A DNA stretch of 4,509 bases from a virus (taxonomy: Duplodnaviria > Heunggongvirae > Uroviricota > Caudoviricetes): the IMG/VR virus record IMGVR_UViG_2734482572_000009, one strand, 5' to 3'. Below are positions 61 to 4,509 of this stretch, one piece after another. The position numbers and the translations under genes are program-made. Under the pieces are notes generated by a model. That model made no database searches, was not told the DNA's origin, and worked only from the letters and a program-made list of their open reading frames with translations. Every line of letters starts with the position of its first letter. Position 1 is the first letter of the stretch.

Positions 61-414
61 TTAAAAAAAGAACAAATGGTAGTGTCCGCTATTGCCAGTA
101 CACCTCAATTGCTCTGCGGCTTCGCTCAGAGCTGGCGTATGTTCCCGGCCTACTGATTCACACAGGTAATCAACGAAACCGGACACCAGTTTTCGTTCGC
201 GAGGCGTGATCGCCCCACCGACCGGAGTCCAGTAATCGAAACCCAGTTGCAGGAGTTTGAAAAAACGCTTGTGGAATGCGTAGTTACACACACGCTTAAA
301 GTCTGCGTGTATCCACTCACCTATTTTGATTTGATGCAGAAAATCGCAACTCTCCGGCGTCGCCGGGAGAAGTAATCCGGAAGAGGTTTGTTTGACCAGT
401 TGTATATGTGCCAT
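61..414 (-). CDS. hypothetical small prophage protein, about 117 aa from the ATG at 412-414; the ORF track extends it to a TTG at 454-456 (131 aa)
   Basis: Open frame ending at TAA 61-63. The ATG at 412-414 is preceded by GGAG about 7 nt upstream; the TTG at 456 overlaps the upstream stop (TTGA) but has no well-spaced SD. Protein is Cys/His/aromatic rich; no family recognised. Co-directional with and directly downstream of the 453..740 ORF. Confidence 0.5.
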   Translation of the reverse strand: MAHIQLVKQTSSGLLLPATPESCDFLHQIKIGEWIHADFKRVCNYAFHKRFFKLLQLGFDYWTPVGGAITPRERKLVSGFVDYLCESVGREHTPALSEAAEQLRCTGNSGHYHLFFF

Positions 415-452
415 CGGCTTTCTCCGGTGGCACGGTGTTACACAGCAGGAGT

Positions 453-740
453 TCAATCCTGCTCAAGATTGTAGATGAGTTTATTCTTCAGCAAAAGCAG
501 AAAACCAGCCTTAAAACCAATCTCTTTCAAAACCCGTAATGATGTGACAAATTCGTCCTCACGCAAAATAAAACCGTCCGTCAGAAGTCCATTACAAAAA
601 TAAAATAACACAGCACCGCTCTTCCTTTGTTGAGATTGCAAACATCTAATGCGGCAATGGCTGACAATCGCTCCATTCTCAACGCGCACAGCATAGAGGC
701 CATTTTCACTAAAAATTTCACGCAATTCTTCGATTTTCAT
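453..740 (-). CDS. hypothetical prophage protein, 95 aa
   Basis: ATG at 738-740 preceded by GGAAGGA about 8 nt upstream; stop TGA 453-455. Sits about 75 nt downstream of a sigma70-like promoter (822..849). No family recognised. Confidence 0.5.
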   Translation of the reverse strand: MKIEELREIFSENGLYAVRVENGAIVSHCRIRCLQSQQRKSGAVLFYFCNGLLTDGFILREDEFVTSLRVLKEIGFKAGFLLLLKNKLIYNLEQD

Positions 741-821
741 CTTCAGAATCCTTCCAGATAAATAGCTCTCCCCTGTTCGGGGTCCATCCCTCTTCTCCCT
801 GCGCGCTACTTAAGTGAGTCG

Positions 822-849
822 ATTCTATCTGCGAAGGTGCGCGAATCAA
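822..849 (-). promoter_or_regulatory. putative sigma70 promoter for the 453..740 / 61..414 cassette
   Basis: Minus-strand reading TTGATT (849-844), 16-nt spacer, TAGAAT (827-822). Lies just downstream of the hok terminator-like hairpin and about 75 nt upstream of the 740 start. Confidence 0.35.
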
Positions 850-865
850 ATTCACCGGAAATAAA

Positions 866-914
866 CAACAAAAAACCCGCCGAAACGCTGAGAGATCACA
901 GCGATGGGCGGGTT
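866..914 (-). terminator. putative intrinsic terminator at the 3' end of the hok transcript
   Basis: Minus-strand RNA: AACCCGCC, interrupted loop containing an inner CGCUG/CAGCG helix, GGCGGGUU, then UUUUUUGUUGUUU. GC-rich interrupted hairpin followed by a U-tract, about 80 nt past the hok stop. Confidence 0.4.
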
Positions 915-953
915 AAGTGCGGGTGCGTTGAGGATGCCTGACACATCAGAGGT

Positions 954-981
954 GGGCGGGGATGGGATCAGCTCCCCGCCC
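954..981 (-). other. GC-rich perfect stem-loop immediately 3' of hok (mRNA structural element, not a canonical terminator)
   Basis: GGGCGGGGA (954-962) and TCCCCGCCC (973-981) form a 9-bp perfect inverted repeat with a 10-nt loop. No U-tract follows on either strand. Position matches the 3' hairpin of plasmid R1 hok mRNA. Confidence 0.35.
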
Positions 982-989
982 GGTCACTC

Positions 990-1145
990 TTACTTCCTGG
1001 ATTCGTAGTCTACGAAGACAGCGACCTCCGTCTGGCCGGTTCGGATTCGTACCTCACAGAGGTCTTTCCTCGTTACCAGTGCCGTCACTATGACGGTTAA
1101 ACAGATGACGATCAGGGCGATTAACATCGCCTTTTGCTGCTTCAT
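990..1145 (-). CDS. hok: Hok/Gef family type I toxin (HokD/RelF-like small membrane peptide, 51 aa)
   Basis: Translation MKQQKAMLIALIVICLTVIVTALVTRKDLCEVRIRTGQTEVAVFVDYESRK: hydrophobic transmembrane segment plus conserved RKDLCEV and TGQTEVA motifs typical of Hok/Gef. AAGGAG SD about 9 nt upstream of the ATG at 1143-1145. The ORF track's 990..1202 is the same frame extended to an upstream ATG. Confidence 0.9.
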   Translation of the reverse strand: MKQQKAMLIALIVICLTVIVTALVTRKDLCEVRIRTGQTEVAVFVDYESRK

Positions 1146-1158
1146 AGCCTGCTTCTCC

Positions 1159-1187
1159 TTGCCTTTCGGCATGTAAGAGGCTAACCT
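1159..1187 (+). promoter_or_regulatory. putative sok promoter (antisense to hok leader)
   Basis: Plus-strand TTGCCT (1159-1164), 17-nt spacer ending GTAAGAGGC, TAACCT (1182-1187). Same architecture and position as the R1 sok promoter as I recall it (TTGCGC-N17-TATCCT). The -10 is weak as written. Confidence 0.3.
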
Positions 1188-1193
1188 ACATGT

Positions 1194-1266
1194 GCAAAGC
1201 ATGAAATTGGCCTCAGATTAATGTTAAGCGTCTTGCCGGACGCGTAATGTTAACTGGGGCTTTTCT
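1194..1266 (+). ncRNA. sok: putative Sok-like antisense RNA
   Basis: Antisense to the hok leader, covering the upstream in-frame ATG (1200-1202) and its GAGG SD. Ends in GGGGCTTTTCTCT, resembling the R1 Sok 3' end. Boundaries inferred, not measured. Confidence 0.35.
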
Positions 1267-1321
1267 CTATCTGCCTTTTGGTGTTCATGCCTGAAGCAGA
1301 TAGCCTCAAGCACCCGCAGTC

Positions 1322-1351
1322 ATTCTACTTACCTCGCCAATATGAAATCAA
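1322..1351 (-). promoter_or_regulatory. putative hok promoter
   Basis: Minus-strand TTGATT (1351-1346), 18-nt spacer, TAGAAT (1327-1322). Predicted TSS near 1315 gives a 5' end GGGUGCUUGAGGCUAUCUGC, close to the R1 hok mRNA 5' end (GGCGCUUGAGGCUUUCUGCC). Confidence 0.4.
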
Positions 1352-1372
1352 TCAGAAAGGTGCCCCATAAAA

Positions 1373-2059
1373 TCACTCCTTCTCTTCTTTACCGTAGTGG
1401 AGTTGACCAATTTTGATAAGAGGGCGTCCCTGAGATTTGCGGTGTAGATTGGTATCGCGCAGAGAATACACACAGCCACAATATTCCTGCTGATAGAATT
1501 TTTCGCGCTTGCTGATTTCAATCATACGGGACGAGCCGCCCTGCTTGCGCCAGTTATAATCCCAGTACACCATGCCCGGATAATGCGCGACGGCTCGCCG
1601 CCCACAGTCGTTAACCTGCTGCATATTTTTCCAGCGTGAAATGCCCAGTGAACTGCTGATCACACTGAAACCATTTTCAGCGGCGTACAGCGCTGTCCGC
1701 TCAAAACGCATGTCAAAACACATGGTGCAACGGATCCCTCGTTCGGGCTCCCATTCCATTCCTTTGGCTCGTTCAAACCAGTTGTCTGTGTCGTAATCAG
1801 CATCAATAAACGGCACGCCGTGTTGTTCAGCAAAGCGAATATTCTCATCCTTACGAATTAAATACTCTTTCTGAGGATGAATGTTCGGGTTGTAGAAAAA
1901 GATGGTGTAGTCGATTCCCGAGGCCTGAAGCGCCTCCATCACCTCACCGGAACATGGAGCACAGCAAGAGTGCAGTAGTAGTTTGTTTGCCCCGTTTGGG
2001 AGCTCCAATTTGGGCCGTTTGAAATCAGCAACTGTCATAAATATGTTTATTGGGGTCAT
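1373..2059 (-). CDS. queH: epoxyqueuosine reductase QueH homologue (DUF208 family), 228 aa
   Basis: Contains the motifs I associate with QueH: [11 protein letters not shown] near the N-terminus, [22 protein letters not shown], and C-terminal [15 protein letters not shown] at 2057-2059 with no obvious SD; alternative ATG at 2036-2038. The internal 1660..1848 ORF is an overlapping alternate-frame artefact. Confidence 0.8.
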
Positions 2060-2206
2060 AAAAATATCAAAGAGTGTAGCATTAGAACGGGGCTATCGGA
2101 AACAGATGTGTGACTGCTCCCCGCCCTTTCGGGTGGTCTCCTGATGATTTGAGGGTGCAGAAATCCCTCCGGTTAAGGATTAAATTTTTAACAGTGCTAA
2201 ATTTAA

Positions 2207-2620
2207 TTATTCAGTTCTGGATTTTGTCGCCCTGCGTATCCGCGCTTTCGCGTTACGCTCAATCTGTATCAGCTTTTCTATATTTCTCCGCCTTTCCTGT
2301 TCCTCCTGGCGCAATAGCCTTACATCATCTGCCAGTCTGGTTTCTCTTTTTGCCACAGAGAGCATCCAGTCAAACGGCTCCACAACCGCACCGCAGATTT
2401 TACAGCGGACCTGACGCTCTTTTTCGTCAACCCGTACAGAGGCGTGATGGCAATATGGTCTTTCCGATGGCTCATAAAGAAAATTAACCTGATTACGAGG
2501 GTCATCCTCTTTTACCGGAAATAAAACGATATTGCTTAACTCATCTTCTGGTTTTATTTCCATGCTCCTCTCCTTTGATGCGAATGCCAGCGGTAATTGA
2601 AGCCTGATAGCTAATTTCAT
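2207..2620 (-). CDS. small Cys/His-containing hypothetical protein with putative zinc-ribbon-like motif (137 aa; more likely 118 aa from the ATG at 2561-2563)
   Basis: ATG at 2618-2620 abuts the upstream stop (TGAATG). The internal ATG at 2561-2563 has a strong SD (AAGGAGAGGAGC, 6-nt spacing). Motif YCHH..(14)..CKIC followed by a basic, coiled-coil-like Arg/Glu-rich tail. No family recognised. Confidence 0.6.
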   Translation of the reverse strand: MKLAIRLQLPLAFASKERSMEIKPEDELSNIVLFPVKEDDPRNQVNFLYEPSERPYCHHASVRVDEKERQVRCKICGAVVEPFDWMLSVAKRETRLADDVRLLRQEEQERRRNIEKLIQIERNAKARIRRATKSRTE

Positions 2621-3043
2621 TCACAGTATCGCCTCCTGAAAATTACCCTGATAGAAAGCCAGTACACGCTGCATAGCTTCGCTCTTCCGGCACTCGCGAC
2701 AGATTATATTCAGGCGCCTGTCGTAGCGGCGTATTTCTCCGTCAGGTAATGACCAGATAAGGTCCGGATCAACAACAACCGGTTTCCTCACCTTTACTCT
2801 CGAGAGTTTTTTGCGGGCGCTTTGCCAGTCCTTGCGAGCCTGTTCAGACGGGAATAAGCCGTAGCCAGAATTATATACATCACCACTTGCGACCAGTTCT
2901 ATGCATAAGCGACCGACAGACGCACGACTGATACCTGTTTCATCTGACAACTGCCGAATCGTGACCCGACCGTCCTGATGCACGAGTTCCACAATTCGCG
3001 TCTTCAGTTCTTCCCGCTGTTCGGGAGTAAAAGGTTTCGCCAT
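2621..3043 (-). CDS. winged-helix HTH protein, tentatively Ren-like (lambda ren position), 140 aa
   Basis: ATG at 3041-3043 with AGGAGG SD 4 nt upstream, 14 nt after the DnaC-like stop. N-terminal HTH-like segment (VTIRQLSDETGISRASVGRLCIEL). The C-terminal CRECRKSEAMQRVLAFY resembles what I recall of the lambda Ren C-terminus, and the gene sits directly after the P-equivalent gene as ren does in lambda. Confidence 0.65.
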   Translation of the reverse strand: MAKPFTPEQREELKTRIVELVHQDGRVTIRQLSDETGISRASVGRLCIELVASGDVYNSGYGLFPSEQARKDWQSARKKLSRVKVRKPVVVDPDLIWSLPDGEIRRYDRRLNIICRECRKSEAMQRVLAFYQGNFQEAIL

Positions 3044-3057
3044 AAATCCTCCTGAAA

Positions 3058-3740
3058 CTACTTAACAACCCTCGAATGGCTAACATTCGGACGCCAGCTC
3101 TCCCAGTTAAAATTCACCCAGCGCCCGNNNNNNNNNNNNNNNNNNNNNNNNNNNNNNNNNNNNNNNNNNNNNNNNNNNNNNNNNNNNNNNNNNNNNNNNN
3201 NNNNNNNNNNNNNNNNNNNNNNNNNNNNNNNNNNNNNNNNNNNNNNNNNNNNNNNNNNNNNNNNNNNNNNNNNNNNNNNNNNNNNNNNNNNNNNNNNNNN
3301 NNNNNNNNNNNNNNNNNNNNNNNNNNNNNNNNNNNNNNNNNNNNNNNNNNNNNNNNNNNNNNNNNNNNNNNNNNNNNGATAGCTGCCGCTAAGTGATTCT
3401 TCCCGGTACCAGGTTTTCCGCTGAACGCAAAATTTGTACACCCGGTCATCAGTTCATCGGCGATGGATTTCGCCTGGCTTAACGCGTATCGCTGGCCGTC
3501 GTTCTGCACCTGGTAATTCGCAAACGAGCATTTACGGTGCAACGGCTGGATGCCTGAGCGATTCAGAATTTTTTCCACCCGCAACTGGCGATTCAGGCGG
3601 TTGATCTCCTCGCTACGTTTCTGGCCTTCAGCAAGTTGCCACTCGCGCCACTCCGCTACCGTTCTGAATGGGGCGGTTACATGTGGCGGGGTCAGTCGGC
3701 GGATGCGTTCCAGAACGCCGCCTGTCGCAATATTTTTCAT
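3058..3740 (-). CDS. DnaC-like replication protein / helicase loader (lambdoid prophage P-equivalent, YdaV-like), interrupted by assembly gap
   Basis: N-terminal 121 codons (3378-3740) align closely with E. coli DnaC through the Walker A motif FSGKPGTGKNHLAAAI. After the N-run, the C-terminal 22 codons (GRWVNFNWESWRPNVSHSRVVK, stop TAG 3058-3060) match the DnaC C-terminus (LWVIFNWDSY...). The frame differs across the gap, so the gap length is arbitrary. ATG at 3738-3740. Confidence 0.85.
3128..3377. other. assembly gap (250 N)
   Basis: Continuous run of N from 3128 to 3377 inside the DnaC-like gene. Confidence 0.97.
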
Positions 3741-3746
3741 GGTCCG

Positions 3747-4016
3747 TTACCCCCTGAAGCCTGGCGGGATCGCACTGTCCGGCAACGAGACGGTGTTAAC
3801 CTGTCGGAGCAACGTCTCAGGCCGAACACCTTTCGGCGCGAACAGGCCCTGGTATTCATTGGCGATGCTGTGTCGAATCACCTGCTCAGGTGTAAAACCC
3901 TGCTGACGGAATTTTTCCAGTTCCCGTATCGCCCCGTTAGCGCCCTGCTCCGTTCGAATCGGTTTTCGCAATGCCTGTCTGAACCGGACCCACTCATGCC
4001 AGAGTGTTTCCGGCAA
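3747..4016 (-). CDS. DnaT-like (primosomal protein I) C-terminal domain of a phage replication initiator; apparent frameshifted fragment, coding frame continues upstream to 4082 without a start codon
   Basis: C-terminus RQVNTVSLPDSAIPPGFRG closely matches the E. coli DnaT C-terminus ([20 protein letters not shown]); PDW.P motif also shared. The listed start is a TTG at 4014-4016, but the same frame stays open and protein-like (SPPRQKRASKKFEPEAIELPDW) up to a stop at 4083-4085 with no ATG/GTG/TTG. Stop TAA 3747-3749, 6 nt before the DnaC-like ATG. Confidence 0.7.
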   Translation of the reverse strand: MPETLWHEWVRFRQALRKPIRTEQGANGAIRELEKFRQQGFTPEQVIRHSIANEYQGLFAPKGVRPETLLRQVNTVSLPDSAIPPGFRG

Positions 4017-4094
4017 CCAATCGGGCAGCTCAATAGCCTCCGGCTCGAATTTTTTAGACGCTCGTTTTTGGCGAGGGGGAGATCAGTATTTAGA

Positions 4095-4115
4095 TCTTCC
4101 TCTTCCTCTTCCTCT
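4095..4115. repeat. tandem hexanucleotide repeat (TCTTCC)x3 plus TCT
   Basis: Plus strand 4095-4112 is TCTTCC three times. On the minus strand in the third frame it encodes EEEEEE(D), an acidic linker. Confidence 0.6.
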
Positions 4116-4185
4116 GGTAACGCTTTTTGATCCGTTTGTGTAACGCTGGCAGCGTTACCTTTTCGTTTCAGTTCGCGTATTTTTG

Positions 4186-4509
4186 TTACTCGCTCGTTTG
4201 TAACCGCCCGTTTTTTTTAGAGCTTTTTCCGTTATGACGTTCAAAGTTAGGTAGAGAAAGCCCTCCGTCATTTTCGACCAGCCATCCAACCTGAATTAAC
4301 GCATCAGCAAAACCAGACATAAAAGTGATGCGATCTATTGCACTTTTTGTAACGCCGCGAGCGTTACAATCTGCATTACCGTCTATCATTTGTTGATCCG
4401 CCCATGCCCAGAAGCGAATAACCTGAGGTAGCCTGAGTTTAACGGACACTCCTTCCTGAAATAGAATGGCATCAGAAGGAGCTAATAATGAGCAGAAAAA
4501 CCCAACGTT
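4186..4509 (-). CDS. N-terminal segment of the replication initiator (probably the same gene as 3747..4082 before frameshifting); 5' end beyond window
   Basis: Frame is open from the window edge (4509) to TAA at 4186-4188. The ORF track starts at GTG 4447-4449, but the adjacent GGAAGGA has no usable spacing, so the true start is probably outside the window. Ends ...NFERHNGKSSKKNGRLQTSE. No family recognised. Confidence 0.5.
   Translation of the reverse strand, partial: NVGFFCSLLAPSDAILFQEGVSVKLRLPQVIRFWAWADQQMIDGNADCNARGVTKSAIDRITFMSGFADALIQVGWLVENDGGLSLPNFERHNGKSSKKNGRLQTSE

Follow-up and report, generated by a model that had tools for sequence, protein, structure and literature searches.

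The window analyzed here is a stretch of 4,509 nucleotides from a Caudoviricetes virus (IMG/VR record IMGVR_UViG_2734482572_000009). Judged by its sequence, the region 1351→870 on the minus strand of this window is a complete hok/sok-type type I toxin-antitoxin cassette, with the in-frame genes mok and hok on one predicted mRNA and a predicted antisense RNA, Sok, running against them (Table 1). The first-pass annotation had proposed a complete locus of this type with an architecture like that of plasmid R1, and the proposal was borne out: both the Rfam family RF01794 and the Pfam family PF01848 score above their thresholds, mok is intact, and the cassette is ~91% identical to the characterized hokW-sokW locus. 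All the elements that had been named were found; the strand, which had been left unstated, is minus.

A covariance-model search of the hok-sense strand matched the hok mRNA family RF01794 over the full model (positions 1-157) with 117 bits, nearly twice the gathering score of 59 (E=3.9e-27), and this match extends over 1315→1140. At the protein level, the Pfam profile HOK_GEF (PF01848) was covered at positions 1-42 of 42 with 79.9 bits (cut-off 22), and the PHROG family 'MokW-like host killing' was matched with E=3e-32. Related copies are carried by 4713 of 5426 complete E. coli genomes. A RefSeq copy with 100% identity has its ORF annotated as HokD (WP_014532198.1); in such identical copies the toxin ORF alone is labelled, and mok, Sok, tac/fbi and the terminator carry no annotation.

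Table 1. Features of the hok/sok-type cassette in the 4,509-nucleotide window
Feature	Position	Strand	Details
Predicted hok/mok promoter	1322..1351	-	-35 TTGATT 1351-1346, 18-nt spacer, -10 TAGAAT 1327-1322; consensus scan
Predicted full-length mok-hok mRNA, ~446-448 nt	870..1315	-	5' end from RF01794 match; 3' end inferred from terminator
tac (translational activator element), GGGUGCUUGAGG	1304..1315	-	mRNA 5' end; pairs with fbi in full-length fold
ucb / anti-SD (AAGCCCC)	1256..1262	-	from folds; pairs with mok SD region in full-length fold and with tac in isolated 5' 60 nt (predicted for processed form)
Sok-target stem-loop in hok leader	1212..1255	-	complement of Sok terminator hairpin; Rfam consensus helix
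mok frame, 70 codons	990..1202	-	SD GAGG 1214-1211, ATG 1202; in frame with hok
hok toxin, 51 aa, MKQQKAMLIALIVICLTVIVTALVTRKDLCEVRIRTGQTEVAVFVDYESRK	990..1145	-	SD AAGGAG 1160-1155; PF01848; ORF intact
GC-rich stem-loop just 3' of hok stop	945..990	-	fold -23.4 kcal/mol, z -3.4
fbi (fold-back inhibitory element), CCUCAACGCACCC	921..933	-	pairs with tac, C927 bulged
Predicted intrinsic terminator	870..914	-	stem AACCCGCC/GGCGGGUU, inner 5-bp hairpin, then U6 875-870; fold -24.7 kcal/mol, z -5.4
Predicted sok promoter	1159..1187	+	-35 TTGCCT 1159-1164, 17-nt spacer, -10 TAACCT 1182-1187; hexamers as in Sp5 sokW
Predicted Sok RNA, ~71 nt	1194..1264	+	ends by homology to the 71-nt sokW misc_RNA of AP000422 and gap-free alignment

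The sigma70-like promoter that had been pointed out upstream of mok matches the consensus at 9 of 12 positions, and the scan gave two sites in 800 nt, where 0.8 were expected. Its -10 and +1 regions are conserved across homologs, and the sequence upstream of about -20 varies by context. The -35 hexamer is supplied by lineage-specific flanking DNA and is set at a suboptimal spacing of 18 nt, which we count against R1-like working. In transcript sense, the predicted mRNA 5' end (GGGUGCUUGAGGCUAUCUGC) begins at G1315, and position 1 of the RF01794 model coincides exactly with this nucleotide.

Element names and the regulatory model used below follow PMC9841398. When the 448-nt transcript 1315→868 was folded (MFE -191.2 kcal/mol), tac (1315-1304) and fbi (933→921) formed a helix of 12 bp in which every pair had p≥0.97. 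A fold-back element complementary to the 5' end with one bulge had been predicted here; the complementarity and the bulge (C927) were found as described, but the element extends over 933→921 and does not begin at 936. Nowhere else on the mRNA-sense strand of the window does tac have as good a partner as the fbi site, and when the 3' UTR was dinucleotide-shuffled 2000 times, 11 of the shuffles equalled the energy of the tac/fbi duplex. Conservation was assessed in 81 distinct loci from at least six genera (Escherichia, Shigella, Kluyvera, Photorhabdus, Erwinia, Pantoea, Citrobacter) and phage contigs. Across them tac is nearly invariant, and 95.1% of tac/fbi cells are paired, compared with at most 51% when the partner is slid. 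The pairing is kept, with compensatory change at pair 1312:924, where 67 loci have U-A, 11 have C-G and 2 have U-G. Column-based covariation is blurred in the distal half of the helix (12-14 "unpaired" cells) because loci that have no bulge are shifted by one column. An alignment-free duplex calculation resolved this: all intact loci have duplexes of -18 to -27 kcal/mol, and decayed ones have lost the duplex.

Folded alone, the 5' 60 nt form the tac/ucb hairpin (z -3.5). Across the 81 loci, 99.6% of the cells of this helix are paired, but it gives no covariation evidence because its columns are invariant; the adjoining stem has four compensatory pairs. The Sok-target hairpin has 91.2% of its cells paired and six pairs with compensatory changes in the same loci (e.g., AU:53 / GC:27). 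MFE folds of transcripts truncated at the 3' end (ends 940, 934 and 928) did not contain the tac/ucb hairpin and had an alternative 5' hairpin instead, and the same truncations in silico gave no rise in the accessibility of the mok SD. We treat MFE structures of 380-nt RNAs as uninformative for kinetic refolding and rely on the Rfam structure match and the fold of the isolated domain instead.

The mok frame adds 19 N-terminal codons (MLCTCRLASYMPKGKEKQA) to hok, and its SD sits 8 nt upstream of the ATG. This in-frame extension is kept in 59 of the 81 homologs.

On the opposite strand, the -35 of the candidate sok promoter and the complement of the hok SD region overlap. By our reading, the -10 of this promoter agrees with TATAAT at only three of six positions, and the consensus promoter scan did not list the site; its support is that both hexamers are identical to those of the sokW promoter of phage Sp5, the spacer differing by one substitution. 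The predicted Sok RNA folds into a 15-nt single-stranded 5' tail that spans the mok start, a hairpin and a final UUUU (-28.6 kcal/mol, z -4.7). The sequence features expected of the antisense promoter and Sok-like RNA that had been placed over the upstream start are present, match sokW and are convergent with hok, which is consistent with that proposal.

The 3' region holds both a GC stem-loop after the stop codon and a U-tract terminator, as the first-pass annotation had stated, and fbi falls between these separate structures (990-945 and 914-870). Because of the R1 model, we assign the GC hairpin a probable role as a block to 3' exonuclease, so that the processed mRNA would end there. It is found at this position in all homologs; its column score in the 81-locus alignment (62.9% paired) is low, which we read as an alignment artefact because the register differs in the lineage of the window. 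Most homologs have a compact CCCGC-UUCG-GCGGG-U6 terminator, and this lineage has a loop insertion of ~23 nt, which also counts against R1-like working. A generic terminator scan of positions 700-1500 reported no terminator. We reject absence of a terminator, since folding reveals a strong hairpin followed by U6 and the loop of ~25 nt is too long for the scanner.

The closest relative is hokW-sokW (with mokW) of the Stx2 phage Sp5 / VT2-Sakai in E. coli O157:H7 (AP000422; Takada et al. 2021, PMC8621323), with 91.1% identity between the hok -10 and fbi, both included (positions 14-441 of a 486-nt query spanning the cassette). The toxins are identical at 50 of 51 residues, the sole difference being ...YESRK in the window and ...YESEK in HokW. 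The tac and fbi elements, the Sok-target hairpin and the sok -35 and -10 hexamers are all identical, and the layout of mok is the same. Differences lie in the Sok 5' tail, where mok codons 2-4 read MLCTC... in the window and MLNTC... in Sp5, in the hok -35 and its upstream flank, and downstream of fbi, where Sp5 does not have the CCCGCC...GGCGGG-U6 terminator of the window. The Sp5 locus has been studied experimentally (PMC8621323): hokW is toxic and HokW is found in the inner membrane; sokW rescues, partly depending on RNase III and Hfq, and the rescue is lost when its -10 is mutated. Comparison of primer YO-421 with the Sp5 sequence suggests that the promoter-less sokW construct, with which protection was lost, alters exactly the -10 shared with the window. 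Smaller hokW RNAs were also seen in that work.

The R1 hok/sok locus (parB; IncF plasmids) belongs to the same Rfam and Pfam families, and an R1-type plasmid locus (L132) follows the same plan. Its tac at the 5' end (GGCGCUU) pairs with the fbi sequence AAGCGCC in the 3' UTR, mok begins 57 nt before hok in the same frame, the sok promoter (TTGCGC-N17-TATCCT) and the complement of the hok SD region overlap, and a GC hairpin after the stop codon is followed by the terminator. The tac/fbi helix of the R1-type locus has an internal mismatch, whereas that of the window has a single bulge. HokW and R1 Hok share ~44% identity (PMC8621323). At the DNA level, the match to R1 is limited to a block of ~47 nt near the hok SD. 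The R1 locus is plasmid-borne with proven post-segregational killing, whereas that of the window is chromosomal and lies in a prophage remnant.

Among chromosomal relatives, K-12 hokD (relF, in the Qin cryptic prophage), after which PGAP names the ORF, is 90% identical over window positions 1159→908, which include the hok SD and coding sequence, the GC hairpin, fbi and the start of the terminator. It, too, has an early-right location within a lambdoid cryptic prophage, and K-12 HokD was toxic in an assay reported in bioRxiv 10.1101/2025.08.07.668861. Upstream of the hok SD, however, K-12 hokD has none of the elements of the window (hok promoter, tac, ucb, mok start or Sok target), and it is directly downstream of relBE, which is not in the window. 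The toxin of the window is thus HokD-like, but the locus is organized otherwise than hokD/relF, and K-12 hokD would appear to be a truncated derivative that keeps the 3' half of the full architecture. The hokC/sokC/mokC (gef) locus of E. coli has the same order of elements and the same tac sequence, with mokC in frame with hokC; nucleotide identity to the window is ~75%, and the hokC target hairpin is 18 nt shorter. Non-K-12 hokC loci retain the tac/fbi pairing, and K-12 hokC has lost fbi next to IS186. We therefore reject a pseudogene or remnant of the K-12 hokD or hokC kind, because the window locus keeps both the upstream half and tac/fbi. The earlier view that the locus is not a decayed remnant agrees with this, since tac/fbi is kept and covaries here and is lost from the decayed K-12 copies. 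Judged by sequence and predicted fold, every element of the locus is present, intact and conserved, and the window very probably holds an intact cassette of the hokD/hokW subgroup that is run by the R1 hok/sok mechanism.

Under this mechanism, in which we infer transcription of both RNAs, processing of the mRNA 3' end and a trigger, the promoter at 1351-1322 on the minus strand would yield a mok-hok mRNA of ~447 nt. The 12-bp tac/fbi helix would close the full-length mRNA, keeping it stable, untranslatable and inaccessible to Sok. Slow 3' trimming would then strip the terminator and fbi and halt at the GC hairpin, after which the 5' end may refold into the tac/ucb hairpin and expose the mok translation start and the Sok target. 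As long as the locus is transcribed, the short-lived 71-nt Sok, made from its own promoter, would use its single-stranded 5' tail to pair with the region of the mok start, and the duplex would be destroyed (by RNase III in the R1 model; in hokW-sokW the effect of the antitoxin is partly dependent on RNase III and Hfq). Once Sok synthesis stops, possibly because the DNA is lost, an infecting phage shuts off host transcription or the prophage is induced, ribosomes would translate mok and, by coupling, hok, and the 51-aa Hok would insert in the inner membrane and kill or arrest the cell.

The surroundings of the cassette are considerably less well preserved. The locus had been described as lying inside the prophage; its origin is indeed prophage-derived, but the description is overstated, as the window holds a 4.3-kb prophage segment flanked by two direct copies of IS600. 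The window has truncated versions of the O-like replication gene and the DUF1367 gene, and neighbouring genes are truncated or frameshifted, whereas every element of the 480-bp cassette is preserved. The cassette is part of the early-right (nin-like) region and reads in the direction of the replication genes; no terminator was detected from QueH to hok. In the full prophage that matches best (FDAARGOS_943), the terminase is interrupted by an IS, a head-morphogenesis pseudogene contains an internal stop, and the integrase is partial. A fixed QueH-hok-DUF1367 context was considered and rejected: among 80 viral contigs QueH was upstream in three, and DUF1367/orf95 was downstream in ~40%. A related APEC O1 prophage keeps the QueH-hok order and has an additional gene, for a Doc-family toxin, in the same slot.

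What the cassette would do in this IS600-bracketed remnant may be approached from its closest homolog. In Sp5, hokW-sokW is expressed and works at its native place in the prophage, and after induction it helps phage to be released: the loss of sokW depends on RecA, HokW appears ~1 h before endolysin R, and a deletion mutant releases ~2-fold fewer phage (PMC8621323). A corresponding lysis-helper role, in which Sok would disappear upon induction and Hok would be made before holin and endolysin to raise phage release, appears quite unlikely in the window. The nin-like position, the co-orientation with the replication genes and the lack of a detected terminator from QueH to hok suit it, because read-through could cross the cassette, and such induced transcription could oppose the sok promoter. 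However, the prophage piece in the window measures just 4.3 kb between IS600 ends with truncated O-like and DUF1367 genes, so that the role would require the rest of the prophage nearby, and productive phage release is unlikely even for FDAARGOS_943 because of its terminase, head-morphogenesis and integrase defects. Arguments from position are not transferable between the two loci either, because the Sp5 copy lies at the attachment-site end of its prophage, next to the wrbA junction, and the window copy in a nin-like slot after QueH. It is less likely still that the cassette is a silent relic, intact in appearance but inert, as other chromosomal hok loci are reported to be, through weak transcription or an mRNA that is never activated, which would have no phenotype and persist only because it is recent. 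Its place within a decaying, IS600-bracketed fragment, the lineage-specific -35 with its 18-nt spacer and the terminator insertion would fit such a state, but no inactivating lesion was found of the kind in K-12 hokD (nothing upstream of window position 1159) or K-12 hokC (fbi lost next to IS186), the whole 480-bp cassette is preserved amid truncated or frameshifted neighbours, and the ~91% identical hokW-sokW is active at its native position.

The first-pass annotation had suggested lysogen protection or prophage stabilization, which on our analysis differs from the phage-release role measured for the closest homolog. This proposal, that the cassette aborts lytic phages that shut off host transcription or kills cells that have deleted the IS600 segment, is somewhat unlikely when taken as a whole. 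R1 hok/sok is cited as having lowered the plating of T4 by 42% and the size of its plaques by ~85%, although this effect, as cited, required a high-copy plasmid (PMC8621323). Genes of the hok type are ~4-fold enriched in prophages, but they were reported in bioRxiv 10.1101/2025.08.07.668861 not to be enriched near defence systems; according to the summary given there, chromosomal hok loci tested earlier failed to mediate post-segregational killing. Loci of the hokD/hokW type are not known to have either activity. On the other side, recombination between the two direct IS600 copies would delete sok and hok together, and a stable toxin mRNA with a labile antitoxin would be expected to kill the IS600-IS600 deletant; the Doc-family toxin gene in the APEC O1 slot also speaks for such a role. 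When the possible roles are separated, selfish or anti-deletion stabilization is conceivable, though still short of probable, phage exclusion is unlikely, help in lysis is rated low as above, and the remaining probability falls to no net role.

One mildly new point is a hotspot of variability in the Sok 5' tail. In 54 close relatives, the most variable segment of the transcribed unit is 1208-1185, with at least 20 variants and almost invariant flanks. It coincides exactly with Sok's single-stranded 5' tail and the target of that tail at the mok start. One Shigella flexneri genome contains three co-resident copies, each with a different variant. A speculative reading, which we hold with considerable doubt, is that the cassette carries a fast-evolving "address" here, perhaps shaped by diversifying selection that insulates co-resident copies from each other's antidotes; taken with the IS600 context, an insulated and still-active cassette might then serve as an anti-deletion device that keeps the prophage remnant in the chromosome.

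The cassette is of an already known type, and nothing found here alters the current understanding of hok/sok; the locus matters little beyond annotation. Because the toxin ORF alone is labelled ("HokD"), the record hides a complete and probably live toxin-antitoxin unit, and the name itself was taken from K-12 hokD, apparently just a truncated half. The locus could thus serve as a reference example of the intact hokD form, and the hotspot in the Sok 5' tail may be used for studying antisense specificity between co-resident paralogs. With an intact killer cassette amid neighbours that are being eroded by IS600, the locus would also lend itself well to the question whether hok/sok units on chromosomes can resist being deleted.

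The cassette on the minus strand of the window (1351→870) was confirmed to be a hok/sok-type type I toxin-antitoxin locus, as proposed in the first-pass annotation, and this interpretation is supported by Rfam and Pfam matches, by the conserved pairing of tac (the mRNA 5' element) with fbi (its 3' UTR partner), and by 91% identity to mokW/hokW/sokW of the Stx2 phage Sp5/VT2-Sakai (AP000422), the closest studied relative. All of its cis elements are present and intact and show evolutionary constraint. The element order was read from the minus-strand sequence 1400→840. A promoter scan of 800 nt found two sites versus 0.8 expected, one of them being the hok promoter. The sole Rfam match in the whole window is RF01794 (1315→1140, minus strand; model positions 1-157; 117 bits, with a gathering score of 59; E=3.9e-27), which, though named "sok", models the leader of the hok mRNA in the hok sense. 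This match starts exactly at the mRNA 5' end predicted earlier. The 70-aa ORF 1202→990 matches Pfam HOK_GEF (79.9 bits) and the PHROG "MokW-like host killing" (E=3e-32). Its mok frame is shared with hok and has 19 extra codons, and such an extension is kept in 59 of the 81 homologs. The terminator loop contains an insertion of ~23 nt (window 876-912, minus strand) that folds as an inner 5-bp hairpin; a compact CCCGC-UUCG-GCGGG-U6 terminator is present in most homologs, and the insertion is common only to a near-identical lineage (loci L002, L005, L006 and L052-L055). The -35 region is also specific to the lineage of the window.

Elements of the hok/sok cassette and their positions in the window
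Element	Position and motif	Strand	Basis or remark
hok promoter, sigma-70-like	TTGATT 1351-1346, N18, TAGAAT 1327-1322	minus	promoter scan
mRNA 5' end GGGUGCUUGAGGCUAUCUGC	first base G1315	minus	6 nt past TAGAAT
mok start	GAGG 1214-1211, ATG 1202	minus	
hok	SD AAGGAG 1160-1155, ATG 1145, stop codon 992-990	minus	
GC hairpin	between hok stop codon and fbi	minus	
fbi CCUCAACGCACCC	933-921	minus	
Terminator	914-870	minus	hairpin + U6
sok promoter, putative	TTGCCT 1159-1164, N17, TAACCT 1182-1187	plus	both hexamers identical to those of Sp5 sokW
Sok RNA, predicted, 71 nt	1194-1264	plus	homology to sokW

The 448-nt transcript has a minimum free energy fold of -191.2 kcal/mol, in which 1315-1304 pair with 921-933, C927 is bulged and every pair has a probability of at least 0.97. 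When the 3' UTR was dinucleotide-shuffled 2000 times, just 11 shuffles equalled the tac/fbi duplex (-21.5 kcal/mol), and within the whole window in the mRNA sense, tac finds its best partner at the fbi site. Homologs were gathered from species-representative genomes (47 loci) and viral contigs (80 loci), and alignment A2 holds 81 distinct intact loci. Across these, standard pairs fill 95.1% of cells at the 12 tac/fbi pairs, compared with 32-51% in a control that displaces the 3' partner by 1-3 columns. At pair 1312:924, for example, 67 loci have U-A, 11 have C-G and two have U-G. Without any alignment, the duplex reaches -18 to -27 kcal/mol in every intact locus; in Photorhabdus and Pantoea, GGGCGC... 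pairs with ...GCGCCC without a bulge, and the bulged base varies freely across homologs (C, U or A). Pairing is lost in decayed loci, including K-12 hokC (beside IS186), K-12 hokD and several truncated copies. Because the complementarity is kept across homologs, the concern that it might not be conserved can be set aside.

The first 60 nt, in isolation, fold into the hairpin of tac with ucb that the Rfam consensus shows (-24.1 kcal/mol, z -3.5). Over the 81 loci this helix is 99.6% paired, yet its columns are invariant; compensatory changes are seen at four pairs of the adjoining stem and at six pairs of the Sok-target hairpin (e.g. AU in 53 loci and GC in 27). The ends of Sok, the plus-strand antisense RNA, were placed from a gap-free alignment and the sokW misc_RNA annotated in AP000422. 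In its fold (-28.6 kcal/mol, z -4.7), the predicted RNA has 15 unpaired nucleotides as a 5' tail, followed by a long hairpin and UUUU. The putative sok promoter is absent from the generic promoter-scan list, and by our reading its -10 hexamer matches the consensus at only three of six positions. Comparison of primer YO-421 with the Sp5 sequence, from which we infer the position of the mutation, indicates that the published promoter-less sokW mutant, in which protection was lost (PMC8621323), changed exactly TAACCT.

It is very probable that the cassette works by the R1-type mechanism, whose regulatory model comprises tac/fbi, ucb, dcb, a metastable 5' hairpin, 3' processing and RNase III (PMC9841398). 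The R1-type plasmid locus resembles the window in its in-frame mok 57 nt upstream, in having a tac/fbi helix and in the location of its sok promoter. Sp5 hokW-sokW is a working type I system in which HokW arrests growth and sokW expressed from its own promoter prevents the arrest; this protection is partly RNase III- and Hfq-dependent, and HokW is located in the inner membrane (PMC8621323). The 51-aa Hok of the window differs from HokW at one residue, and by analogy with this ~91% identical system, toxicity, antisense neutralization and membrane targeting would be expected here. Transcription of both RNAs, 3' processing and the trigger are presumed.

Two RefSeq E. coli chromosomes, FDAARGOS_943 and FDAARGOS_944, contain the cassette at 100% identity, and in them the toxin ORF alone is annotated, as HokD. 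K-12 hokD in the Qin prophage (locus L004, 4045-4289) aligns with window 1159→908 only, i.e. the 3' half. Promoter, tac, ucb, mok start and Sok target are all missing from it, and its immediate upstream neighbor is relE. The name "HokD" given by PGAP to the window ORF therefore masks a real architectural difference, and by this alignment the window appears to carry the intact form of a cassette kept as a fragment in K-12 hokD. Related cassettes were found in 4713 of 5426 complete E. coli genomes (median two and maximum nine places per genome) and in 110 phage records. Given this wide occurrence, the HokD annotation and the identity to hokW-sokW, the finding is correct and the locus is an already known kind of system. 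A recent survey reports 44,248 Hok homologs with a 4-fold prophage enrichment (bioRxiv 10.1101/2025.08.07.668861). The cassette is a discrete module that occurs in several different neighborhoods; its similarity to other copies usually extends from about -20 relative to the hok promoter to a point shortly after fbi. As a separate observation, UACG (the Tyr47 codon and next base, 1007-1004, minus strand) is invariant in 81/81 aligned loci and is a possible editing site. The same survey, summarizing the literature, describes TadA A-to-I editing of hokC, hokD and hokE mRNAs that recodes the corresponding Tyr as Cys, and a disulfide from the edited cysteine that is needed for full HokB toxicity (bioRxiv 10.1101/2025.08.07.668861).

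The earlier placement of the locus inside the prophage overstates its context. Since both window ends are IS600 (1-107 is the right end of one copy, and 4424-4509 is the left end of a second, like-oriented copy, with the orfA start ATGAGCAGAAAA at 4488), the prophage DNA is a 4.3-kb fragment (108-4423) between direct copies, and these junctions were found in no complete E. coli genome of the collection. The DUF1367 (NinB-like) gene (108-414, minus strand) is cut by IS600 at 108 and keeps roughly its first 102 codons (Pfam profile positions 1-102 of 198), and the O-like replication initiator gene (3747-4449, minus strand) is cut at 4423 and split across two frames; window 3378-4424 is 98.2% identical to FDAARGOS_943 with four gap openings. 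A 250-N run (3128-3377) masks the middle of the ydaV/DnaC-like ATPase gene, so ORF calls across it are not meaningful. The full-length epoxyqueuosine reductase QueH gene (1373-2059, minus strand; Pfam 220.6 bits) is the next gene upstream of hok and shares its orientation, and a terminator scan between the two detected none. In a related prophage of APEC O1, the QueH-hok adjacency recurs, with a Doc-family type II toxin gene beside hok. The hok promoter hexamers recur just past the hok terminator in a second promoter-like site (TTGATT-N16-TAGAAT, 822-849, minus strand), which lies ~80 nt upstream of a 95-aa ORF (740→453) that has a phrog_340 match and no Pfam match. In FDAARGOS_943, a Rac/lambdoid-type prophage carries the cassette in its early-right (nin-like) region, in the order cI/cro-like, YdaT, O-like, ydaV (DnaC-like), DUF977, hypothetical, QueH, hok, hypothetical, DUF1367, DUF1364, DUF1133, tRNAs and lysis genes. 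That prophage is full of IS600, IS1 and IS2 and carries pseudogenes.

In the window, the neighboring prophage genes are decaying and the cassette is still intact. In the Sp5 lysogen, mitomycin C makes sokW disappear and HokW is produced RecA-dependently, with phage release ~2-fold above that of the deletion mutant (PMC8621323). By analogy, the cassette could be a lysis helper, but this role requires an inducible prophage, which the window remnant probably is not. Phage exclusion or anti-deletion stabilization would be a plausible role. Chromosomal hok loci were negative in earlier post-segregational killing tests, as summarized in the survey (bioRxiv 10.1101/2025.08.07.668861).

Among 54 close relatives, 1208-1185 is the most variable stretch of the transcribed unit, with at least 20 sequence variants and mean column entropies of 0.84 and 0.68 in two 12-nt bins versus 0.02-0.16 in adjacent bins; neighboring segments are almost invariant. 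It coincides exactly with the single-stranded 5' tail of Sok and mok codons 1-6, and the mok start codon (ATG) and frame are largely preserved despite this variability. One S. flexneri genome holds three copies (L006, L011 and L013), each with a different variant. This pattern may fit selection for non-cross-reacting antidotes, that is, insulation between paralogous antidotes.
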